Virus record (IMG/VR): IMGVR_UViG_3300045988_149282
Coordinates: 1-64,000 of that record
DNA: 64,000 nt
Direction: 5' to 3' (one strand)
Origin: a virus
Taxonomy: Duplodnaviria; Heunggongvirae; Uroviricota; Caudoviricetes
Under the pieces are notes generated by a model. The model was not told the DNA's origin and ran no database searches. It saw only the letters and a program-made list of their open reading frames with translations. Shown one piece after another: positions 2,987-59,618 of this stretch; positions within the stretch are counted from its first letter, which is position 1, and each line of letters opens with the position of its first letter. The translations under genes and the position numbers were made by a program.

Positions 2987-3190
2987 TTAAATAGAATTTT
3001 GAAGTTTTCCGATTAATACGCTTAAGCGTAAGTATTCACGTTTGCGCTTGCAATCTCGCTTGCTGTTAAGCAAATCAGAAAACGTAAAATTTAATTGGTC
3101 GCGTTGCGCGATCAAATCGTCGATTAATTCCAGTTTATAAGCGCGATAATTTGCGCGATATTCTGCGCGGATCTTGTCATAGCTGACCAT
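2987..3190 (-). CDS. hypothetical small basic protein (~67 aa)
   Basis: ORF track 2987..3235; internal ATG at 3190 has RBS AAAGGAGC; the longer start would overlap the hairpin at 3217-3237. Confidence 0.4.
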   Translation of the reverse strand: MVSYDKIRAEYRANYRAYKLELIDDLIAQRDQLNFTFSDLLNSKRDCKRKREYLRLSVLIGKLQNSI

Positions 3191-3238
3191 CTTTAAAGCT
3201 CCTTTAAAGCGCCCACAATGGGCGCTTGATTCCATTAA

Positions 3239-3889
3239 TTACGCTTTAAAAGCATCAGCTAAATAATTGTAGAAATCATTCTTGATAAAGCGATATTGCT
3301 GTGTACCAGCTTTTGCGCTTCCCATTCCTTTGACTTTCTCAACAAGCCCAAGACGTTCGCAAAGATTGATCAACTGGTTGGCTTGAGTATAGCCAGCGTC
3401 TAATTTAATTTCACACGCTTTTTTAGCTTCATTCATTAAATCGAAAACAGCACCATTGGTGAACGTGTCGATCTCGTCGTTAATCATATCGATTAAAGCG
3501 AATACACGAGATCCAGACATATCAGCGATGGAATAAACGCATTTGCCAGATTTAATTGATTTAACCAGATAAACCAGTTTTTCCAGAGAATAACTATTAG
3601 TCATTGCATCACGGAAAAATACTTCTGGCGCTTGTTTGCTTGCTTTAATTGCATAGTAGAAAACAGAGCATAATTTTTCGTCTTCTACTGCGTTTACGAC
3701 GTTGTTGATGAAGTAAGCAAGTTTCGTGGTCGCAGCTTGCATATTTGCTTTGTCTGCTTTGGTGTGCGTACCATTTTTATAATGTTCATTATATGTTTGA
3801 GTTGCCAGATCTGCTTTTTCGCGCAGTTCATCGGATACAATGGAAGCAGCTTCAACGATGGATTTTTTAGAAATGATAATGTTAGCCAT
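3239..3889 (-). CDS. hypothetical protein (216 aa), possible DNA-binding/regulatory protein
   Basis: Minus-strand ORF, AT-rich; weak HTH-like C-terminal segment; long AT-rich promoter-like region upstream (3890-4150). Confidence 0.5.
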   Translation of the reverse strand: MANIIISKKSIVEAASIVSDELREKADLATQTYNEHYKNGTHTKADKANMQAATTKLAYFINNVVNAVEDEKLCSVFYYAIKASKQAPEVFFRDAMTNSYSLEKLVYLVKSIKSGKCVYSIADMSGSRVFALIDMINDEIDTFTNGAVFDLMNEAKKACEIKLDAGYTQANQLINLCERLGLVEKVKGMGSAKAGTQQYRFIKNDFYNYLADAFKA

Positions 3890-4147
3890 GATGGATATCC
3901 TTACGAAAAATTAAAATGAATTTATTTTTTACTGTCGTTAGCTAGCTCGCTTTCGACGAGTTCAATTATCGATACGTGAAAAAAGATTGCAAGTATTTTT
4001 TTTAAATTTTCTGCAGGGATGAAAGTCCTAGAAATAAAAGCGAGATCGTCGAAGGTGTTCCCTAAATAAATAATCAATTCGGGCTTTTAACCTTATATAT
4101 TTATACAGAGTGGCATTGAATGAGTTTTAAATGAATGGCATGTAAAA

Positions 4148-4173
4148 TAATAACCGGGCTTAGCCGGTTATTA
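4148..4173 (-). terminator. hairpin terminator for the minus-strand operon
   Basis: TAACCGG...CCGGTTA inverted repeat immediately 3' of the gene ending at 4185. Confidence 0.5.
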
Positions 4174-4184
4174 CCCTTATAGAT

Positions 4185-4709
4185 TTAAAATGGAAGGATT
4201 CGTTCAACCCAATCGAAGAAAACAAGTATTTTTCTGCCGTCTTCTAACTTAAGAGTGACCTGGCAAGCATCAACGCCTCTTGACACCCCTTCAATTTCAC
4301 GACCGTCTGCCATGTAGACCCTTATAGATTGGTCGTTTTGATAAGCCTTGCGACATATCGCAAAAAAGTCACGGCGTGATGGCTGATTGTCAACATAGTC
4401 TGGATGTATTGTTAGCCTACCTTTGAACTCGCGAGCAATGCCATCGATTACACCTGATTCAATTGTGCTAATGCGCTCAAGTGGGAGTCTTATACGATTT
4501 TCTTTATCATATGGAAGCGGGCATAAATCTAGCTTATTGCGGGAAGGCATTGTCCCCTGAACGTACATGCAAAACACCTGACCGTCTTCAAGCGTGACTC
4601 TTACAGGAATGTTGTTCTTCCGCCAGAACATAAGTATGTTTTCAGCATGTTCGTAGTCTCGCGGCCAGACTTCAGCCGGTATGCCGTAGGTGATGTCCGA
4701 TGTTCTCAT
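4185..4709 (-). CDS. hypothetical cytoplasmic protein (174 aa)
   Basis: Minus-strand ORF; start overlaps the stop of the upstream gene (ATGA); hairpin terminator downstream at ~4148-4173. Confidence 0.55.
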   Translation of the reverse strand: MRTSDITYGIPAEVWPRDYEHAENILMFWRKNNIPVRVTLEDGQVFCMYVQGTMPSRNKLDLCPLPYDKENRIRLPLERISTIESGVIDGIAREFKGRLTIHPDYVDNQPSRRDFFAICRKAYQNDQSIRVYMADGREIEGVSRGVDACQVTLKLEDGRKILVFFDWVERILPF

Positions 4710-5299
4710 TCTGATACTCTTAGAGGTGTTTTCAGCAACCCAAATTTAAATTCTTTGTTACCAACGACAAAGAAGGGAACCTCAACATAGATTTTTTTAT
4801 CGACGGATTTAGAGTTCGCTGTTTTCTGTATGTCACGAACGATACGTTTTGAGGTATTTTCATCGATAAACAATACCTTTCCACTTGTATTCCCTTCAGC
4901 CTTGGCGTAAGTAACGATAGGCTCTTCATTGCCAACCCTAATGTTTACTTGGCAACCTGTTGTAGCCATTTCATCACAGTAAAGTGTGCCGTCTTGAACT
5001 TCCAAAACAATTCCAGATGGCTTCATGGCTTCGTCAGAGCTTACATTAACGTTTTCTGGTACAGCGGTCCCGTTAATTTGCAACCGTAATCTTTCTTTTC
5101 CTGCATTAAGTATTGTTTCTTCTGCGTTATCTGAGAATCTGAACCAGACTGGTTGAATCAGACCTCGTGATTCGTATTTTAGTACGTCTTCAGAAGTATA
5201 CATGCTGTACGTTTTTTGCATGTCGGAGACGATATCTGACAACGCATTTGCGGAAAATGACGAGAGGTATATACAAGCAAGAAGTAACGAACGTTTCAT
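4706..5299 (-). CDS. secreted/periplasmic protein with N-terminal signal peptide (197 aa)
   Basis: N-terminus MKRSLLLACIYLSSFSANA is a typical Sec signal peptide; translationally coupled to the 4185..4709 gene. Confidence 0.55.
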   Translation of the reverse strand: MKRSLLLACIYLSSFSANALSDIVSDMQKTYSMYTSEDVLKYESRGLIQPVWFRFSDNAEETILNAGKERLRLQINGTAVPENVNVSSDEAMKPSGIVLEVQDGTLYCDEMATTGCQVNIRVGNEEPIVTYAKAEGNTSGKVLFIDENTSKRIVRDIQKTANSKSVDKKIYVEVPFFVVGNKEFKFGLLKTPLRVSE

Positions 5300-5479
5300 T
5301 TTTATACAGCGATTATTGCAAAGTAGAATTATAAATATCCAATAGTCTCAAACGATAAGTTTTCAACTGTAAATAGCAGACTTGTTTCTCTAAAAGCTGT
5401 GCGGCAAAGGCGTTGTTGCCGCACTCTGTCTATTAGCTCTTCAAGTCTGGCAATTCTGAAATTGACTAAGAATCCAATA

Positions 5480-5758
5480 TTACGGCAGTTTGCTTAGAAT
5501 TTGCTCTAAATCTTCCTTTGTCATATTAGAGTTCTCATAGATGCGCATGATTTTCTCACGAGCCTTAGCAGAGACTCCAACGGCAGATGAAACTTTGTCA
5601 AATTCAGCCATTGTCATCGCTTCCAGAATGGTATTGATAACTTCAGCCTTAGACATTTTGATGTTTTTTTCTTTTAGTTTCATTTGAAACTTTCCAAGTT
5701 TGTCATTGGCCTTATCGGACAATGCCACCTGACAATAAGTTGTTTTCTTTTCGCTCAT
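5480..5758 (-). CDS. hypothetical small protein (92 aa)
   Basis: Minus-strand ORF starting 2 nt after the helicase stop; hairpin downstream at ~5397-5425. Confidence 0.5.
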   Translation of the reverse strand: MSEKKTTYCQVALSDKANDKLGKFQMKLKEKNIKMSKAEVINTILEAMTMAEFDKVSSAVGVSAKAREKIMRIYENSNMTKEDLEQILSKLP

Positions 5759-5760
5759 AA

Positions 5761-7320
5761 CTAATCTCGTTTCAGAACTCCAAAATCGAATGCGCCATCA
5801 ATAGGCAATACACCTTCTGCAAAGCCAGGTGTGGTGTCGATGATGTGTTTTCGCTCATAAGAGTGAGACAACAGGTATTTGTTGCTAATGTCAATGAAAT
5901 CAGTGATAAAACACACGTTTGCCTGATTCTTCTTGGCTCGTAAGCCACGACCGACACGCTGCCTCATTTCAACTTCTGCTTTCCCACCACCAGCCAGAAT
6001 GACCGCACCAACGCTTGGCACATCAACACCGACATCCAGAATAGTCGAGCCTATTAAAACATCTATTTCGCCAGACGCTAAACTGTTCAGCTTTGCTTGC
6101 CTTGTCGCCTGGTTTGATTCCCCATAGATGAAGTCAACTCTAAGGCCGGACTCCTTCATCATCTCCATCAGGATTTGCCCGTGGCGTTTAAGACGAACCA
6201 GAGTCATGCAATTGAGAGAATGTTGCTTATAGAGCAATGCTTCGCGCACAATGGCCTCGTTACGTCCCAAATTATACACGATCCCCAACTGATAAGCCTT
6301 TTGGTAGGCTGTGCTCATACCTACTCTAAAATTGAGGTGTTTGTTGGCAAGTTCGGCCTTGATTCTGGCCTCGTCTGGCTTGTAGGCAACTTTATGATAA
6401 AGGAAGTATGGTTTTGCCAGAATGCCTCTATCAATCAGGTACTTTTCCGTGACTTTTATTTCAATTCGCCCGGCCACTGCCATCAGGCGCATGTTGGCTT
6501 CCGTCGAATCCTTCATGAACGGCGTGGCTGTAAGCGCCAGACGATAGTCTGCGTTCACACATAATCTGGCGATGTCATAGAAATTAGAGCCTGAAGACTC
6601 ATGCGCCTCTTCCAGAATAAGAAGAGAGACACTTGAAAGGAAGCGTTTCACCAACTCCCGACGTTTGAGGTGGTAGCTTTTCTTATCTGGTGTTGCATCG
6701 CGTGGTGGTTCTTCGAGGAAACTTGCAAGAGTTTGAACTGTAGCGACGTTGATATGTCGTGATACCTGGAACTCACCCGAGCCAATTACTCCAACCTTTT
6801 GGTCCTTTAACCACGGTTCGCCATTTTCGGCGCGGTAGTCGATGGATCTCTGGAAGTTTTCGGCCATTTGAAACATCAGAACAGAGCGGGTTGTTAAAAA
6901 TAATGTCATTCGACCGATACGTGCAGTTGCTTTGCAGGCAACGTTAGATTTCCCGCCACCAGTAGCGATCTGCGCAATCATCATTCCCTCTCGAACCAGT
7001 GTTTCTACTGTCTGATCTTGGTACGCATAATCAGGGTTGTATGGAAATGGGTTAACCGCAGGATTTGGTTTACCCAGCGTCGGGGCTTTGTCTTTGCGGA
7101 TATGAACACATTTGATGCCCGCCTTGTTCAAATTAGCCGCCACGGGCTTGGCAAAGCCAGCAGGGAACGAGTTTTTGCTCCAGTTGAACATTGTGCTTGT
7201 GCCCTTCCAGTCGCCAGCCTCGACTTCGTAGCTCAACATTTGCTGCACCAGTTGCTTTACCTTGTCATCTGCGCCAGAAATAAGCGCATTTACTGCGTTA
7301 GATACAATCCGAACAGTCAT
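5761..7320 (-). CDS. superfamily-2 DNA/RNA helicase (DEAD/DEAH-box, ResIII-like)
   Basis: Walker A (ATGGGKS), DExH motif II (LILEEAHE), motif VI (QRVGRGLRA); RBS AAGGAAAGAGG before ATG at 7320. Confidence 0.85.
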   Translation of the reverse strand: MTVRIVSNAVNALISGADDKVKQLVQQMLSYEVEAGDWKGTSTMFNWSKNSFPAGFAKPVAANLNKAGIKCVHIRKDKAPTLGKPNPAVNPFPYNPDYAYQDQTVETLVREGMMIAQIATGGGKSNVACKATARIGRMTLFLTTRSVLMFQMAENFQRSIDYRAENGEPWLKDQKVGVIGSGEFQVSRHINVATVQTLASFLEEPPRDATPDKKSYHLKRRELVKRFLSSVSLLILEEAHESSGSNFYDIARLCVNADYRLALTATPFMKDSTEANMRLMAVAGRIEIKVTEKYLIDRGILAKPYFLYHKVAYKPDEARIKAELANKHLNFRVGMSTAYQKAYQLGIVYNLGRNEAIVREALLYKQHSLNCMTLVRLKRHGQILMEMMKESGLRVDFIYGESNQATRQAKLNSLASGEIDVLIGSTILDVGVDVPSVGAVILAGGGKAEVEMRQRVGRGLRAKKNQANVCFITDFIDISNKYLLSHSYERKHIIDTTPGFAEGVLPIDGAFDFGVLKRD

Positions 7321-53450: not shown

Positions 53451-53649
53451 ACGGGAGAAGGAAACGCTTCATGAAATCAGTAAGTGGCCGGAGTTCCCTG
53501 AGTACTGGAAGCCTAAAACGCGAGCTAAGTTAGAGCGTTTAGGGTTGGTTGCAAACGTTTCTGAAACGAAGTGTTCGGCCAACTACCAGTTAACTGATAA
53601 AGGGAAAGTATTGCTACAGCAATTAGTAGAATCAGGAGTGTTAAAATGA
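53434..53649 (+). CDS. hypothetical small protein (71 aa)
   Basis: ORF with GGAG RBS. Confidence 0.4.
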   Translation: MIVLSKREKETLHEISKWPEFPEYWKPKTRAKLERLGLVANVSETKCSANYQLTDKGKVLLQQLVESGVLK

Positions 53650-53798
53650 TTCCATACATCTCATTAGCTTTTATGGGTGGCTTCCTTATCGGCTTCGGCA
53701 TCTGTCGTGATTTAATTAAGCAGGAACTTAAAACCAAAACACTGTGCATCGGAAAGCGTGTGTATCGGGTAGTTCATGAAACAAAGGTTAAAAAATGA
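53646..53798 (+). CDS. small membrane protein (~50 aa), paralogue family member
   Basis: Not in the ORF track (short); ATG overlaps the upstream stop; TM helix plus basic tail (GKRVYRVVHE) resembling 53271..53450. Confidence 0.35.
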   Translation: MIPYISLAFMGGFLIGFGICRDLIKQELKTKTLCIGKRVYRVVHETKVKK

Positions 53799-54085
53799 GC
53801 AATTTAACTTCTTGGGACTGGTGGTTGGCCACCTATTTCTTAGCGGCCGGAGTCGCATTCGCCTTTTACGTAGGTCAGTTAGTCGTAAAACTGTTGCTGA
53901 TTAAATTTGCTAGTCATAAACGTATCGATGATGGTCTGTGGCGTCTTGGCACCCTGGTGGAAACTCGCTACGGGCAACTTAAGGAGAACGAAACCATTAC
54001 TATCCAGGCGAAACGATTCACTGCCACCATCACAAGAACACCTAGTCGTAGAGTGGCCTTGATCAAAAAAGTCACAACCGAATAA
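53795..54085 (+). CDS. small membrane protein (96 aa), paralogue family member
   Basis: N-terminal TM helix (WWLATYFLAAGVAFAFYVG) followed by a basic region; third member of the apparent family. Confidence 0.45.
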   Translation: MSNLTSWDWWLATYFLAAGVAFAFYVGQLVVKLLLIKFASHKRIDDGLWRLGTLVETRYGQLKENETITIQAKRFTATITRTPSRRVALIKKVTTE

Positions 54086-54094
54086 AAACATCAT

Positions 54095-54116
54095 GATAAG
54101 TATTTACTTACTTATC
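54095..54116 (+). promoter_or_regulatory. TAAGTA-type hairpin motif (GATAAGTATTTACTTACTTATC) at the head of the tRNA/ncRNA region
   Basis: Inverted repeat GATAAGTA / TACTTATC followed by a T-rich tract, at the start of the ~780-bp noncoding stretch preceding the tRNAs. Confidence 0.4.
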
Positions 54117-54863
54117 TTTTATGTATAAGATGACTTTGTTTTCGTTGAGACGCGACTGTTTGAACTTAAATACAAGTGCAAACGAAGAAGTCTATCTGGC
54201 AGTAGCCTAATAAGCCAAACACCAGCGAGGTCAGTTTCCAGCCTCGTTACCGAAATGGGACACACTGAGCGAGTGTGATTGCAGAACGCAGGAGGGAACA
54301 TTCATGTTCCCTCCGATGAAGTAACAGAATGGGCGGTTGGTATATTTTCAACTCCATATGACTCCCGGATTCTTAGCCTCTGACCGCCCATCCTGTTACG
54401 TCATTTTGTTCAATTATGTCGTTTATACTGGGTTAAAAAGCGGCGACGTAGCCCGGCTGGTATGGTTAGCCAGCACACAACGTTGAGGCCATTACATTTT
54501 TATCAATTCTAAGGTTCTATTCACAGAGATACCGGCGAGCGTTGATATGTAACATGTTGGGCAAACATTCAATCGGAGTAGTGGCCTCAACGTTGTGAAG
54601 ACAGGATTGTTGTGTAGGTTTAACCACTGTTGCCATTGGTGCCTGTTTTCACAACAAATGATTCCATACATCACATTGTATAAATTACAAAGTAGGTGCT
54701 GTCCTCAGAAACATCATCTACTTAAAGATTTTGCCTTCTACTATTGAGCGAAGTCGAAAGCGTCTGGCACTAACGAAAAGTGCAAGTAGCGGTGCGTTTC
54801 CTGGCAGAAACTAAACCGTCGCGATTGGCACTGTTGAGTAATAAATACTGGCAGTGCTGAATT

Positions 54864-54938
54864 GATGGTGTAGCTCAGCGGTAGAGCAGTTGGCTGTTAA
54901 CCAACTGGTCGGTGGTTCGAATCCACCCACCATCGCCA
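54864..54938 (+). tRNA. tRNA-Asn (anticodon GTT)
   Basis: Hand-folded cloverleaf: 7-bp acceptor GATGGTG/CACCATC, D-arm GCTC/GAGC, anticodon loop CTGTTAA, T-loop TTCGAAT, encoded CCA. Confidence 0.8.
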
Positions 54939-54943
54939 ATTTA

Positions 54944-55030
54944 GGGGAGTTAGTCCGTAGAGGTAGCGGTGTAGACTGTAAATCTACTGTCATGGCGACT
55001 CGGGTGGTTCGACTCCATCACTCCCCACCA
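54944..55030 (+). tRNA. tRNA-Tyr (anticodon GTA), class II with long variable arm
   Basis: Acceptor GGGGAGT/ACTCCCC, anticodon stem GTAGA/TCTAC with loop CTGTAAA, long variable arm, T-loop TTCGACT, encoded CCA. Confidence 0.75.
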
Positions 55031-55034
55031 AATT

Positions 55035-55110
55035 GCCGGTTTAGCTCAGTTGGTAGAGCGCCTGCCTTGTAAGCAGGATGTCAGCGGTTCGAGTCCGTTA
55101 ACCGGCACCA
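55035..55110 (+). tRNA. tRNA-Thr (anticodon TGT)
   Basis: Acceptor GCCGGTT/AACCGGC, D-arm TAGCTCAGTTGGTAGAGC, anticodon loop CTTGTAA, T-loop TTCGAGT, encoded CCA. Confidence 0.8.
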
Positions 55111-55404
55111 ACATAATATTGAGAACATTGGCGTAACGGGTTCATATCCCAATTTATGAATATAATGTTGCGTTGCAGCGTGACAACCAGTGTTCTCAAC
55201 ATTGTGGTGAATGCACAGGCTGATGTGCGACGTAGAAGCAAGCGGATGAACTGCCTGAAGGCCGCTAACGTAGGCAATGCCGGAGATCAGCACCGGCCAT
55301 CACAATTTGGCTCTCTTGCAACAGCATAACGCTGAAATACGTCCAACCTGGTGCGGTCTGATCACCCGCCGTTAGCTCCACGAAACGGAGCACACAACAC
55401 AATT

Positions 55405-55491
55405 GGAGAGTAGGGAGCATGGTGCTCAAGCGGTCTTGAAAACCGTCCCATTGTGCAAACGATGATGGTTCGATTCCATTACTCTCCGCCA
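55405..55491 (+). tRNA. tRNA-Ser (anticodon TGA), class II (candidate)
   Basis: Acceptor GGAGAGT/ACTCTCC, anticodon stem GCGGT/ACCGT with loop CTTGAAA, long variable region, T-loop TTCGATT, CCA. D-arm atypical, hence lower confidence. Confidence 0.6.
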
Positions 55492-55628
55492 GACACAGCG
55501 TTGAGCGGTTTGGCCTTTTAATCAACCAGATTAAGACTCCGCTAACATAAACCAGACCGCTCAACGCTGTGATAGACAATTACGGCAGACGTTCTTAACC
55601 ATAGCTTGCTAACATCCTAGCAACACTT

Positions 55629-55657
55629 TTTTCAGCGCAAAATTCAAAGGGGCTTCG
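55629..55657. repeat. 29-bp direct repeat, left copy, flanking the lipoprotein cassette
   Basis: TTTTCAGCGCAAAATTCAAAGGGGCTTCG; 27/29 identical to 56550..56578. Confidence 0.65.
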
Positions 55658-55669
55658 GCCCCTTTTTTG
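55647..55669 (+). terminator. Rho-independent terminator after the tRNA cluster
   Basis: AAGGGGC-TTCG-GCCCCTT hairpin followed by TTTTTT; also forms the left copy of the 29-bp direct repeat flanking the lipoprotein gene. Confidence 0.65.
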
Positions 55670-55784
55670 ATTTGTTGACACTTAGTTATATTCACGTATC
55701 GTTTTATCGCTTTGATCCGAGGCAGCGTTAGACTGCCTTCATGTTCCTGATTAGATCGCAGCAGTTAAACATGGAGACAAATTA

Positions 55785-56339
55785 ATGAAGAAGTGCCATC
55801 TCAATATTTTCGCATCTCTAATAATTGCGTTAACACTAACAGGGTGTAACGAATCTGAAATAGATGAATTAACGTTAATAGGCAAAGATAAAAGTGAACT
55901 TGAACAAAATTATAAAGCCCAATTCAAGAAGCTAACACAAAATGTTGAAGTGTTTATTCTTCAAGATAAAAATAGTCCGACTGAAAAAGAACCGCATACG
56001 AATGGCAACCTGATCGACGGAAAAGTCGAAATGTCATTAACCAGTAATGTTGGTAAGTATACATTCATCCAGATAAGTGAAATGCTGACAAAGGAGTACG
56101 GAAAACCCGTTGCTACAAAAGATCGTGTTTTTAACAGAGAAGCAGTATCTGGCATGGACTGTATTGAAACTAAAACTTGTGGAGCTGGTAAATATTATGA
56201 AATCTTTCGAGGGAAGGATAGATTGATTATGGTGTCAAACGGTGCCGGTCTTTTACACGAAAAGGAAGGTGTAACACTACTCACCATCACCGATAAACAA
56301 TTTAAATTTTCTCGTTTAGAAGAAGATAAAATAAAATAA
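55785..56339 (+). CDS. lipoprotein (184 aa), accessory/moron gene
   Basis: Signal peptide plus lipobox (LTLTGC); AT-rich, K-rich coding sequence unlike the surrounding genome; flanked by 29-bp direct repeats. Confidence 0.65.
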   Translation: MKKCHLNIFASLIIALTLTGCNESEIDELTLIGKDKSELEQNYKAQFKKLTQNVEVFILQDKNSPTEKEPHTNGNLIDGKVEMSLTSNVGKYTFIQISEMLTKEYGKPVATKDRVFNREAVSGMDCIETKTCGAGKYYEIFRGKDRLIMVSNGAGLLHEKEGVTLLTITDKQFKFSRLEEDKIK

Positions 56340-56549
56340 TGACAGGGGCGTATACGCCCCTATCTAAAATTTGACATTAAACATATATTGCATCTGGTAT
56401 CAGCAATTTTTGTGCGCTATGTAAGTCCTTACCTGCAATCAGTCTCATAAATATCGGATTTTACGTAGCGTACCATCGTTACAGCAAGCATCAAATTATT
56501 CACTGACATTTATGCGCTGAAAACAGCGTTACTTACCGTAAAATAACAA

Positions 56550-56578
56550 TTTTCAGCGCAAAATTTAAAGAGGCTTCG
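56550..56578. repeat. 29-bp direct repeat, right copy, flanking the lipoprotein cassette
   Basis: TTTTCAGCGCAAAATTTAAAGAGGCTTCG; degenerate copy of the terminator-containing left repeat. Confidence 0.65.
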
Positions 56579-56590
56579 AATCTGCACAAC

Positions 56591-57919
56591 CTATTGTGCG
56601 TACTCGCCCAATTTTAATGTTTCACGCTTATATTCATCAACTATCTCACATGATTTAATATAGATATGGCACAATAGGTTATCACTATCATCATTATCGT
56701 TTATTGCCATAAGTGCCAACTTTTTCTCATATTCATCGATCGCATCACTCAACTGATCACCTGTAATTACATCTGACTCACTCGAGAAATATAACTGCCC
56801 AAGATTTACCGCATTTTTTCCAGTTTTTCTTTGCTCTATGTAATTTTTAATCATATCCTTCACATCCTTTTCACTACTCAGTATTTCACTTTCGAAATGG
56901 ACATGCTCTGAAATCGACGCGACTCTGCAACCGATCAAACGATGAATATAGTCATCAATAGACGTAACACTATCATTAGCTTTTTTTAGTGCTTCATCAA
57001 AAATGCTCTTTACCTCATTTGGCAAATTTTTAAAATAATCATCAATTAAACCAGATAATGGTGTTTGGTAGTTCATTAATACCGATGAAGCAACTTGCGG
57101 ACGACGAGCCACCCAGATTTCTTTGACTTCAACTTGAGAATAATATTCCTTAATCACGTTCCAAAAGTATTTTAACATCTTGGTTTTAAATATTTTATCA
57201 AATCTATCCTTTATAAATAGCTCTACTTCAGGCATGCTTGAATAAGCATCATCAAAGAATATTTCATCTTTGAAAAAATCATATTTATTTAATAAAGCAT
57301 ACAGTTTTTTTGAATCCAGCGGTTCACGAGAATCGATGTCCAATCCAAAAACTGCAATAACCAACTTCATTTGCGGTGGTATTTTTCCACTCAATTGAAT
57401 AATATATTCCATTTTTTCATCAAAACAATTTCCATCTATGTAAAATCGGTTATCTACATAGACTAATATATTGGTAATATGTTTTATGTACTGAATAACC
57501 TCATGCTTTCTTACCAATGGATAAAAAAACGAATGCATTTCATTTTTATTAAATTGTTTTTTTGTCTGTTCAATGATTGGTATGACATTATTGTACAACT
57601 CATCATGCTGATTTAATAAAGTGTCAAACCATTCTTTGAAAGAATTTTTTCTCATCTCAATCAATGAATCGGTAGTTATCCTAACGGCCTCCAGTGCTGC
57701 CTTTGCACTTTTTCTTGCTTCATAGGCGTTCCACGCTGTTGCACAAAAAGCCGCTGTCGTTATAAAACTACTCAATACAGCAATTTGGTCTGTAACCTTC
57801 CAATCTTGAAATGGCTCAAGTAGTAAACCTAAAAACAAAATTATTATGGAAAACATTAGAATTGCAACAGAAATAAAAACAGGCATGTATGCTCTCGTAC
57901 TTACCATTGTTAGTTGCAT
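56591..57919 (-). CDS. membrane-anchored protein (442 aa; two N-terminal TM helices plus large cytoplasmic domain), accessory gene
   Basis: AT-rich minus-strand ORF; TM helices VFISVAILMFSIIILFLGLLL and IAVLSSFITTAAFCATAW; GATAGGTAAGTA-type motif on the minus strand upstream (57981-58002). Confidence 0.6.
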   Translation of the reverse strand: MQLTMVSTRAYMPVFISVAILMFSIIILFLGLLLEPFQDWKVTDQIAVLSSFITTAAFCATAWNAYEARKSAKAALEAVRITTDSLIEMRKNSFKEWFDTLLNQHDELYNNVIPIIEQTKKQFNKNEMHSFFYPLVRKHEVIQYIKHITNILVYVDNRFYIDGNCFDEKMEYIIQLSGKIPPQMKLVIAVFGLDIDSREPLDSKKLYALLNKYDFFKDEIFFDDAYSSMPEVELFIKDRFDKIFKTKMLKYFWNVIKEYYSQVEVKEIWVARRPQVASSVLMNYQTPLSGLIDDYFKNLPNEVKSIFDEALKKANDSVTSIDDYIHRLIGCRVASISEHVHFESEILSSEKDVKDMIKNYIEQRKTGKNAVNLGQLYFSSESDVITGDQLSDAIDEYEKKLALMAINDNDDSDNLLCHIYIKSCEIVDEYKRETLKLGEYAQ

Positions 57920-58058
57920 TAAATATTAACTAAATTAAGTTGTGATTAACAGGCAAGTTTACGATGTATTGCAGACATTAAATAGGTTTTTACTTACCTA
58001 TCTTTTATAGTAATATTTATTTTCTGGTTAAGTAACACATAATTATTATGAGGTAAAC

Positions 58059-58304
58059 ATGACTATCGTTATCTACGGACGAGATAACTGCTCATATTGC
58101 AAACGTGCGGTCGAGCTGGCGAAACAACTAAAGGGACACGGCTATGGTGATTATGAGTACATCGACATCACCACTGCCGGTATCGATAAGGAAAAACTTA
58201 GCGAAATTGTTGGCAAACCGGTAGAGACTATCCCCCAGGTACTGATCGATGGCCAACCGATTGGCGGATACACAGAACTGGCTGCATACGTCACCACTCT
58301 CTAA
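58059..58304 (+). CDS. glutaredoxin (NrdH/Grx-like thioredoxin fold)
   Basis: 81-aa protein with CSYC active site near the N-terminus and glutaredoxin-like TIPQVLIDGQPIGG motif; hairpin plus T-run terminator follows. Confidence 0.8.
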   Translation: MTIVIYGRDNCSYCKRAVELAKQLKGHGYGDYEYIDITTAGIDKEKLSEIVGKPVETIPQVLIDGQPIGGYTELAAYVTTL

Positions 58305-58309
58305 TTTTA

Positions 58310-58333
58310 ACGGCTCACAGGAGCCGTTTTTGT
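58310..58333 (+). terminator. Rho-independent terminator after the glutaredoxin gene
   Basis: ACGGCTC-ACAGG-AGCCGT hairpin followed by TTTTTG. Confidence 0.6.
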
Positions 58334-58514
58334 TCCCACCAAACTCACGCTTGGTTCCCTTAAAATTCAAAAAACAACGGCTAAATGATTCCATACCTAC
58401 TATGTATGGAATCATTACTGAAAATGAGTTACTTTTACTCTTGATCCTATAAGAATCTATGCCTAATATACTGTTTACTTATACAGTGAATCGGCGTAAC
58501 TCGGTGATTGTCAT

Positions 58515-59618
58515 ATGAAAAATAGCTTTGACAGAGCACGCGCTGCGGAGAACACCTCAAAAGAGGCGATTGAGTATCTCGAAAGAGCATCTCAAATGCA
58601 GGCCGTTATGATCTCGCAGGTCAGCAATGACATGAGATTCTCGGACGCATTCATGTTATTCACTCGCTTATCTCTGCTGATAACAAGACGTCGGCCAGAG
58701 ATCGCTGTTCATTGTATTTTGATACATGTTTTGCCGCACATTGCCGATGTAAAAGTAAGTGACATTAATAGGTTCATGGTGAACCAACTGGTCAACCCAC
58801 TAATACTGGATGGCAAAATTGTTATGGGCCGCCGCGTTTTCTCTCTGATGAAGCAGTTCCTTAGCTGGTGCGCCTTCCAGGGGATGATAGACGTGTCACC
58901 GTTAAACGATATGTCACTAAACAAAGTTGCCGGTGGCGCAAAGCCTACACCTCGCGAGCGGAAGCTGACCGACGCAGAGGTATGGGTGTTCTGGAATATA
59001 TGGGACTACTTCAATGTGTGCGCTGGTACAAAATGGGCGGCCAGGCTGTGTCTTGTATCCGCAAGACGACCTGACGAAGTACTGCGGGCTAAAAAAAGTG
59101 AGTTCAATCTTAAGCGTGGGGTTTGGAATCAAGGCAAGAGGAACAAATCTGCCCGTGAGCATTCTCTGCCTTTAAGCTCATTAATGCGCACTTGTATTGA
59201 AGAGTTGTTCGAATATGGTAAAGACAGCCAGTGGCTCGTGCCTTCGAATAAAAAAATCGGGAAAGACCTTCCTATGTCTAAAGTGGCAATAGCCCAGGCA
59301 TTACGTCGTATTCTGGAACGACCAGAACTGATGGAGCTTGAGCCATTTACACCCCGAGATTTGCGCCGTACTGCGCGTAGTTACTTCCCAGCATTAGGCA
59401 TAAGCCAGGAGGTATCACGTAAAATCATGAACCACAGTCTTGAGGGGATAGATCGGGTCTACGACCGGCACGATTATATGGACGAGATGCGAGACGCCTT
59501 AGAAAGTTTCTCGACGTACATCGCATCAATCGTAGAGCAACCGGATTTAGACGAAATTGACCACAAATTTAAGGGAGATCGTCTATCAACAGAGCTTATT
59601 CGTGTAAATTTTTCATAG
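58515..59618 (+). CDS. tyrosine recombinase (phage integrase family)
   Basis: Catalytic-domain motifs: ARLCLVSARRPDEV (box I Arg), FTPRDLRRTARSY (H/RxxR region), RVYDRHDY (putative catalytic Tyr). N-terminal start uncertain. Confidence 0.75.
   Translation: MKNSFDRARAAENTSKEAIEYLERASQMQAVMISQVSNDMRFSDAFMLFTRLSLLITRRRPEIAVHCILIHVLPHIADVKVSDINRFMVNQLVNPLILDGKIVMGRRVFSLMKQFLSWCAFQGMIDVSPLNDMSLNKVAGGAKPTPRERKLTDAEVWVFWNIWDYFNVCAGTKWAARLCLVSARRPDEVLRAKKSEFNLKRGVWNQGKRNKSAREHSLPLSSLMRTCIEELFEYGKDSQWLVPSNKKIGKDLPMSKVAIAQALRRILERPELMELEPFTPRDLRRTARSYFPALGISQEVSRKIMNHSLEGIDRVYDRHDYMDEMRDALESFSTYIASIVEQPDLDEIDHKFKGDRLSTELIRVNFS

Follow-up and report, generated by a model that had tools for sequence, protein, structure and literature searches.

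A lipoprotein gene, an AbiC/AbiP-like gene and a probable terminator scar in the cargo slot of an SSU5/pHCM2-type phage-plasmid

The stretch analysed here, 64,000 nt of the IMG/VR virus record IMGVR_UViG_3300045988_149282 (positions 1 to 64,000, referred to as the window), was assigned to an SSU5/pHCM2-type Escherichia coli phage-plasmid. A preliminary description of the sequence had drawn attention to a lipoprotein gene bracketed by 29-bp direct repeats, in an AT-rich island that also holds a minus-strand gene for a membrane protein. Both open reading frames (ORFs) are present (Table 1), and four tRNA genes (Asn, Tyr, Thr and Ser) lie immediately upstream of the island. The assignment follows from the genes around the locus, ie DNA ligase, the four tRNAs, glutaredoxin, a tyrosine recombinase (integrase), a repressor-like helix-turn-helix protein and CobT/CobS-like proteins, which are the gene set of the SSU5/pHCM2 phage-plasmid group. 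The region around the repeats matches E. coli plasmids of approximately 105-115 kb, nearly all of them non-mobilizable, as well as the phage records Cyrano and CMS-2020a. Among 5,426 complete E. coli genomes, 336 have the locus, in nearly every case on a plasmid, and it is also present in pHCM2 of Salmonella Typhi CT18.

Table 1. Features of the locus behind the tRNA cluster, in window coordinates (. = no strand assigned).
Feature	Position	Strand	Remarks
tRNA-Ser(UGA)	55405..55491	+	ARAGORN; last of the Asn-Tyr-Thr-Ser cluster, the conserved left border of the cargo slot; 97-99% identity in relatives
Repeat copy 1, within the intact intrinsic terminator of the tRNA operon	55629..55669	+	Hairpin 55646-55665 followed by T-run TTTTTTG; -14.1 kcal/mol; last piece of backbone ahead of the cargo
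Sigma-70-like promoter of the lipoprotein unit	55675..55702	+	TTGACA-16 nt-TATCGT, 10/12 match; sequence prediction
184-aa lipoprotein precursor	55785..56339	+	Lipobox L-T-G-C, Cys21, Asn at +2; conserved Cys126 and Cys132
GC-rich hairpin, GGGGCGTATACGCCCC core	56341..56364	.	Between the two convergent genes; -15.0 kcal/mol, z -4.7; T-run on the minus-strand side
Spacer	56365..56549	.	Seen only in plasmids of this same arrangement
Repeat copy 2 (terminator 5' half only)	56550..56578	+	2 substitutions; ~15 nt gone (3' arm and T-run)
AbiC/AbiP-family (putAbiC-like) membrane-anchored protein	56591..57886	-	431 aa from Met12; ORF reaches 57919 (442 aa); ~370-aa all-helical cytoplasmic domain
Divergent intergenic region, AbiC-like gene/glutaredoxin gene	57887..58058	.	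Very AT-rich, 23.7% GC for 57920-58058; 27-nt operator-like motif at 57982-58008
GrxA-type glutaredoxin gene	58059..58304	+	Pfam PF00462, E 6.5e-11; conserved right border of the cargo slot

The two copies of the repeat, TTTTCAGCGCAAAATTCAAAGGGGCTTCG at 55629-55657 and TTTTCAGCGCAAAATTTAAAGAGGCTTCG at 56550-56578, are identical at 27 of 29 positions and have a period of 921 bp. They are the only matches to the 29-mer in the window at up to 3 mismatches, and no 29-mer match was obtained in any of 100 dinucleotide-preserving shuffles. In-register identity begins and ends sharply at the two boundaries, and the flanks are unrelated. Folding bore out the description of copy 1 as part of an intact terminator hairpin, whose sequence suggests that it could work in both directions, and of copy 2 as degenerate, since no fold is predicted for it and its 3' arm and T-run are gone. 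Between the copies lie a sigma-70-like promoter, the lipoprotein gene, a GC-rich hairpin and a spacer of about 185 bp. The T-run of that hairpin is on the minus-strand side, so it is likely to be the terminator of the transcript of the minus-strand gene, and it would also serve as a stop for the lipoprotein transcript.

The island had been described as AT- and lysine-rich compared with the neighbouring genes. The first part of that claim was right: the GC content of the island (55670-58047) is 33.6%, against 47.4% for the window, making it the lowest-GC 2.4-kb stretch of the window, approximately 3.4 standard deviations under the mean. By gene, the values are 35.0% for the lipoprotein and 32.8% for the 442-aa reading frame, compared with 46.8-48.0% for the neighbouring glutaredoxin and integrase genes, and the GC content of third codon positions is about 0.30 in the island genes and about 0.50 in the neighbours. 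The second part stood only in weakened form, lysine making up 12.0% and 8.6% of the two island proteins and 6.0-10.9% of the neighbours, a modest enrichment. A second low-GC stretch (38-41% GC) was seen at 3001-6000 of the window.

Comparison with related plasmids defined the borders of a cargo slot. When both repeat copies were aligned with five relatives, the seven sequences were identical through the terminator T-run (to about 55669) and diverged immediately after it. The conservation from tRNA-Ser to the T-run, with divergence directly following, places the left edge of the slot at the terminator, of which the relatives have one copy each. On the other side, the relatives become homologous again either at glutaredoxin or within the minus-strand gene, in the first ~300 nt at its 5' end. 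The contents of the slot differ widely. In one kind of E. coli plasmid (type A) there is a lipoprotein gene of 75% identity, together with a 262-aa gene and a remnant of PhoH; in another (type B) there is a minus-strand homologue of the 442-aa gene alone. In Enterobacter and Klebsiella plasmids a minus-strand homologue is followed by PhoH, Gp49 and glutaredoxin. The slot of pHCM2 contains genes for a 242-aa protein, the lipoprotein, a 263-aa protein, PhoH and Gp49, and that of a Citrobacter plasmid a longer array which, as in pHCM2, includes the lipoprotein. Cyrano has Gp49 at this site and CMS-2020a an unrelated 302-aa minus-strand gene. The product of the latter (L002 3801-4709, minus strand), which occupies the same slot in the same orientation as the AbiC-like gene and has no Pfam or PADLOC match, is a candidate for another single-gene defence cargo.

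The lipoprotein gene and the AbiC-like gene are usually alternative occupants of the slot. Among the complete E. coli genomes, the lipoprotein gene was detectable by DNA in 44 and an AbiC-like gene, of the window class or a 55%-identity class, in 45. Both together, in the present arrangement, were found in 5 of the 336 locus-bearing genomes, and these same five plasmids were the sole matches of at least 99% identity in the DNA searches with either gene; beyond them, the mutual exclusivity of the two genes rests on individually inspected loci. The comparison of related genomes proposed in the preliminary description revealed plasmids that lack the lipoprotein segment exactly at the repeat boundaries. 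In type B plasmids the span from tRNA-Ser to glutaredoxin is 939 bp shorter than in the window, which by our arithmetic is the 921-bp repeat period plus a 33-bp difference in allele length, less about 15 bp for the terminator deletion. A sensitive DNA search with 56340-57650 gave, in 37 plasmids, an alignment which starts exactly at 56550 and runs on into the gene. The distance from copy 2 to the stop codon of the minus-strand gene is 12 nt, and the single terminator of the AbiC-only relatives (aligned here: pMB5646_2) lies 14 nt from theirs.

These alignments bear on the notion that a small lipoprotein cassette is mobile, with specificity for the tRNA-Ser terminator, and that the repeats are its att-like (attachment) sites or a target-site duplication. 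A direct repeat does bracket a compositionally foreign gene beside tRNAs, a single copy is present where the lipoprotein gene is missing, and a tyrosine recombinase gene is situated 2 kb away. However, neither a recombinase nor a transposase is encoded in the 921-bp segment between the copies. A site-specific cassette should show the repeat on both sides wherever the gene occurs, but in the type A plasmids, pHCM2 and the Citrobacter plasmid the lipoprotein gene has the terminator on its left only, with other genes and no repeat on its right; the right-hand copy belongs to the present arrangement alone. Copy 2 is joined to the AbiC-like gene just as the terminator is in AbiC-only plasmids, the right end of the repeat falls inside the hairpin loop and is followed by a deletion, and the spacer is found in no other context in the collections searched. 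To our knowledge the target duplications of transposable elements are all far shorter than 29 bp. A mobile cassette is, on this evidence, very unlikely. Insertion of a group II intron or an insertion sequence at the terminator was also considered and was rejected, as the segment has neither the coding capacity nor the ends of such elements. We read the 29-bp repeat instead as a recombination scar of the backbone terminator, and not as an att site, a target duplication or a recombination site. The repeat is real, but as a scar it would be a fairly ordinary product of modular evolution.

The arrangement can be accounted for as follows. Behind the tRNA cluster stands the terminator, and behind it a cargo slot which ends at the glutaredoxin gene and which relatives fill with different genes. 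Of two common alternatives, one is a forward unit of predicted promoter, lipoprotein gene and hairpin. The other gene is in reverse orientation, with its 3' end next to the terminator, and encodes a membrane-anchored protein of the AbiC/AbiP family. We infer that one recombination event placed the lipoprotein unit before an AbiC-like module that had a terminator copy of its own, either carried in with it or retained. On the left this event could have been homologous, and the junction at about 56549/56550, just upstream of the second terminator, would be illegitimate. The product would then read terminator, lipoprotein gene, spacer, truncated terminator and AbiC-like gene, with the duplication of the terminator as a by-product; copy 2 would have lost its 3' arm and T-run later, or arrived without them. 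The spacer itself contains a partial inverted copy of the left end of the repeat (56510-56533), which pairs with copy 2. Its ORFs are short (20-26 aa), and its fold is no more than that of a hairpin plus terminator. Homologous recombination is clearly active at the locus, since a contig with the same lipoprotein and AbiC-like arrangement (L012, 4876-5820, from Logan SRR29183797) has a mosaic lipoprotein gene, identical to type A as far as about codon 97 and to the window thereafter, which shows directly that homologous exchange has taken place within the gene.

The minus-strand protein was analysed from its start. Translation probably begins at Met12, because a GAGAG Shine-Dalgarno sequence is located 5 nt upstream of that ATG, all homologues begin MP(V/I)L, and RefSeq annotates a protein of 431 aa. 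A word-indexed search returned only ten clusters, all enterobacterial and 29-56% identical, and an exhaustive profile search with the window subfamily gave 86 representatives. Among 60 of these that are full-length, 47 match PF16872, 'putative phage abortive infection protein' (putAbiC); the PADLOC models for AbiC and AbiP are matched by 8 (best E 1.3e-6) and 5 relatives, respectively. By hhalign, the window subfamily and a set of 45 distant relatives, of which 41 match PF16872, aligned over 405 columns with a probability of 100% and an E value of 2.5e-42. The PF16872 domain maps to residues 142-217. One sister allele at the same locus (P0008) scores 22.0 bits against PF16872, which is the exact cut-off. 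By these profile comparisons the protein is a full-length homologue of the putAbiC (AbiC/AbiP) proteins, and the earlier suggestion that a protein with two transmembrane helices might act as an abortive-infection effector gains from this homology. The AbiC-like gene was found in 138 plasmids of PLSDB.

The predicted architecture is also that of the AbiC/AbiP group, ie an N-terminal anchor and a helical extramembrane domain. The AlphaFold model (mean predicted local distance difference test score, pLDDT, 73.6) has N-terminal helices at 11-33 and 43-67. Mean Kyte-Doolittle hydropathy is 2.83 for residues 13-34 and 1.37 for 45-63, later segments reaching 1.12 at most, and the sequence after helix 2 is rich in lysine and arginine; helix 2 is a probable transmembrane helix. 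Five distant alleles at the same locus (P0006-P0010) are 55-70% identical to the window protein in residues 45-110 and just 24-27% in 111-442, while the flanking DNA is 90-98% identical. Of the core residues, the histidine of LL(E/N)QH, Y144 and the FF motif are kept, and several others are replaced. An anti-phage sensor-effector would be expected to look much like this, with a membrane module that is conserved, a cytoplasmic domain that has diversified, and a gene that belongs to AT-rich, dispensable cargo.

The closest known systems include AbiC (pTN20) and AbiP of Lactococcus, which are likewise single-gene, plasmid-carried and membrane-anchored, with an N-terminal transmembrane region and a helical extramembrane domain. 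Both are smaller than 431 aa. The window protein differs from them in that it comes from an enterobacterial phage-plasmid, is not matched directly by their models and has several core residues replaced. AbiC has two transmembrane helices and is grouped with AbiP, which has one; in the presence of AbiC less major capsid protein is produced, and AbiP is an RNA-binding protein that interferes with the early-to-late transcription switch (PMC13064643). The AbiC-like protein would be a single-gene anti-phage protein of the resident plasmid. Its two-helix membrane module, with a juxtamembrane helix, may act as anchor or effector, and the diversified cytoplasmic helical domain may sense some component of a superinfecting phage and arrest its late development in the manner of the Lactococcus proteins.

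A different view of the 431-aa protein is that it serves the biology of the plasmid, for instance as a membrane anchor or in lysis or maintenance, and that its likeness to AbiC/AbiP reflects shared ancestry only. The replacement of several invariant putAbiC core residues and the lack of a direct match to defence models would suit this view, and the function of the family has been studied in Lactococcus only. It fits less well with a gene that is dispensable and is swapped for unrelated cargo in many sister plasmids, or with an AT-rich gene whose alleles differ strongly at one locus, features that usually mark defence cargo. One homologue, located in the accessory region of a plasmid, adjoins a faint Abi_2 match and PLD-family and DUF2726 genes. 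A role in plasmid biology is accordingly a minority reading, although one with some weight.

The lipoprotein precursor begins with MKK, followed by a hydrophobic stretch and the lipobox, in which L18, T19, G20, C21 and N22 are invariant in 13 homologues, and it would yield a mature protein of 164 aa. The two further cysteines are invariant as well, which suggests a disulfide bond. Asparagine at position +2 leads to Lol-dependent sorting to the outer membrane in E. coli, and the same destination is predicted here. Type A plasmids keep an equivalent of the predicted promoter (TTGACT...TATGGT). A single-sequence search of 5.8 billion proteins gave 17 clusters, none below 61% identity, and a profile search for more distant relatives added nothing to this closed set. 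Of the plasmids in PLSDB, 108 have the gene; they come from Escherichia, Salmonella (pHCM2 among them), Citrobacter, Enterobacter, Shigella and Cronobacter, and the family is restricted almost entirely to SSU5/pHCM2-type plasmids. It has no relative in Pfam or PADLOC, a profile search of PDB sequences was empty, and the AlphaFold model (pLDDT 48.7) is unusable. When both proteins of the island were compared with 50,697 phage records by tblastn there was no match, although small PHROG families of unknown function do match both, and an NCBIfam scan of the two gave nothing meaningful.

The lipoprotein had been likened to the receptor-blocking superinfection-exclusion factors of the Llp/Cor type, and this likeness found no support. 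Like Llp of T5 and Cor of phi80, N15 and HK022, it is encoded by a phage-related element and has a lipobox signal peptide, and the analogy with the known phage exclusion lipoproteins, which block FhuA, is suggested by its predicted place in the outer membrane, by a predicted promoter of its own and by its position among the accessory genes of a temperate element. The only match to Cor, however, is to PHROG 1119 (E 0.041, residues 1-50), ie to the signal peptide; past it there is no similarity, nor is there a Pfam, PDB or PADLOC match, and the structure model offers no help. The mature part is approximately twice as long as Llp or Cor, and the family is well conserved rather than diversified. 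The receptor of SSU5 is reported to be the lipopolysaccharide core rather than a protein. A receptor-blocking role for the lipoprotein is purely conjectural, and an exclusion factor of this type is unlikely. The lipoprotein would more plausibly be made from its own promoter in the plasmid-carrying cell, be sorted to the outer membrane and alter some property of the envelope; a surface role is likely and a part in exclusion possible.

Three other proteins were set aside as relatives of the lipoprotein. The plp gene beside the tRNAs of phage P1 is an antisense ORF over tRNA-Thr and the spacer between tRNAs, and was judged by position alone to be unrelated to the lipoprotein gene. A 184-aa gene of contig L019 has the same length, but its protein is unrelated by BLASTP. 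The 184-aa protein of Cyrano was distinguished by its different PHROG family alone.

The preliminary description also regarded the repeat-bracketed lipoprotein gene as a moron. The concept comes from the lambdoid phages and was reportedly defined by Hendrix and colleagues. Much of it applies: the lipoprotein unit is a single gene in an AT-rich accessory island by tRNAs, with its own predicted promoter and a terminator-like hairpin after the gene, its composition is foreign (35.0% GC against 47.4%), and it is present or absent between otherwise collinear genomes, being missing from the AbiC-only, Cyrano and CMS-2020a arrangements. What has to be dropped is the part played by the repeats, which do not mark a self-contained mobile cassette. 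A flanking repeat lies outside the moron concept, and here it would come from the stacking of two modules behind one backbone terminator. In pHCM2, a member of the same element family with the same locus, the lipoprotein gene is 66% identical and lies between the tRNA region and phoH, gp49 and grxA; unlike the window, pHCM2 has neither the AbiC-like gene nor the second terminator copy, and extra genes flank its lipoprotein gene. The slot further resembles the fixed-position cargo slots known from a different element family, in which conserved backbone borders enclose interchangeable, mostly AT-rich cargo that includes anti-phage genes. It differs from those in that its left border is the terminator of a tRNA operon and most of its cargo has no recognised defence annotation. 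The moron-type cargo slot and the AbiC/AbiP family are known kinds, and the lipoprotein family is uncharacterised.

The whole explanation, ie two modules stacked behind the tRNA-operon terminator with the repeat as scar, an AbiC-like anti-phage protein and an envelope lipoprotein, was given a probability of roughly 0.7. Its parts do not have the same standing: the anatomy of the locus with its repeat, the presence/absence pattern, the homologies and the composition were observed directly, and we infer how and in which direction the recombination took place, the expression of the two genes, the anti-phage function of one product and the envelope role of the other. Several results weigh against it. 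The 431-aa protein of the window itself has no match to PF16872 at E up to 0.1 (gathering score 22 bits), and none in PADLOC, hence none to the AbiC and AbiP models. Several residues that do not vary among PF16872-positive relatives are replaced in the window subfamily (the S of SPYMR, an R, the N of AVN and the H of FFEH), so its biochemical activity may differ from that of AbiC/AbiP. The second hydrophobic helix is only moderately hydrophobic (1.37), and a structure search with the AlphaFold model gave no informative structural neighbour. How AbiC and AbiP work is itself understood only in part (PMC13064643). The lipoprotein is conserved at 61-85% identity across genera, as expected of a stable accessory gene rather than an arms-race gene. 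Finally, the spacer has no source in the collections searched: for the 210 bp at 56340-56549, blastn against E. coli genomes returned only the five identical plasmids, and exact-pattern scans of GTDB genomes and JGI metagenomes gave no match. Either module could be the newcomer.

Some further elements were noted around the slot. A 27-nt motif, ATA(A/G)GTxTTTACTTAC(T/C)TATCTTTTAT, with an internal inverted repeat, occurs at 54096-54122, downstream of an ORF ending at 54085, and at 57982-58008, in the divergent region between the AbiC-like and glutaredoxin genes; none would be expected by chance, and it looks like an operator or promoter element. The 13-mer AATGATTCCATAC has four mismatch-free copies inside 5 kb, at 53645-53657, 54657-54669, 58384-58396 (plus strand) and 58404-58416 (minus strand). 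The last two form a palindrome, 58384-58416, about 100 bp upstream of the integrase gene, with a lox/dif-like core of 12-nt arms and a spacer of ~9 nt, and it may be a resolution site of the integrase or an operator. The homology of several relatives resumes exactly at this palindrome, which therefore bounds on the right another variable region, situated between glutaredoxin and integrase. This region is a second cargo slot that runs from the glutaredoxin terminator to the palindrome, and the window has no cargo in it (58305-58383). In relatives it was located at L002 5190-6290, L005 7714-8742, L011 5901-6929 and L001 4313-4867; it is occupied by a 202-aa protein and a YafO-family toxin in CMS-2020a and other plasmids, and by an unrelated minus-strand gene of 184 or 163 aa in Cyrano and pHCM2.

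In the region of the tRNA cluster an Rfam scan (53500-58600) found tRNAs only. Three long hairpins with related arms, CACA(A/G)CGTTGAG..., lie upstream of tRNA-Asn (54476-54597), directly after tRNA-Thr (55109-55209) and directly after tRNA-Ser (55494-55571). The arm motif has six matches against 0.7 expected, and the hairpins could be processing structures or a small family of palindromic repeats. The tRNA-Thr region and the spacer before tRNA-Ser (55005-55393) are ~84% identical to phage P1 (L009 2501-3108), where antisense ORFs are annotated over them as plp ('putative lipoprotein') and upl. That phage-plasmids otherwise unrelated share this sequence points to a non-coding role and makes these two P1 ORFs doubtful.

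What the locus provides is, in the first place, a cargo slot located behind the tRNA cluster of SSU5/pHCM2-type phage-plasmids, with a diverged AbiC/AbiP-family protein as a recurrent occupant, one that in this window escapes the standard models of Pfam and PADLOC. The repeat is a worked example of how the stacking of two modules can duplicate backbone sequence and so mimic a mobile cassette. A much bolder interpretation, which we regard as speculative and improbable, is that the 184-aa protein founds a new class of outer-membrane lipoproteins for exclusion or envelope modification, unrelated to Llp/Cor and nearly restricted to SSU5/pHCM2-type plasmids. The tRNA-operon terminator would then be a landing pad on which an outer-membrane barrier is stacked on an inner-membrane abortive-infection protein of the AbiC/AbiP type, the latter representing a hypervariable defence family that has gone unrecognised, with members in more than 100 enterobacterial plasmids. 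E. coli, Shigella, Salmonella Typhi and Klebsiella commonly carry phage-plasmids of the SSU5/pHCM2 type, which are mostly described as cryptic. A recent survey recognised few or no defence systems in several of their clades (bioRxiv 10.1101/2025.09.12.675607). If the AbiC-like protein is active, SSU5/pHCM2-type plasmids would protect their hosts from other phages, and the series of alleles at one locus, with a fixed membrane module and a variable cytoplasmic domain, would be useful for the study of how AbiC/AbiP proteins sense phage.

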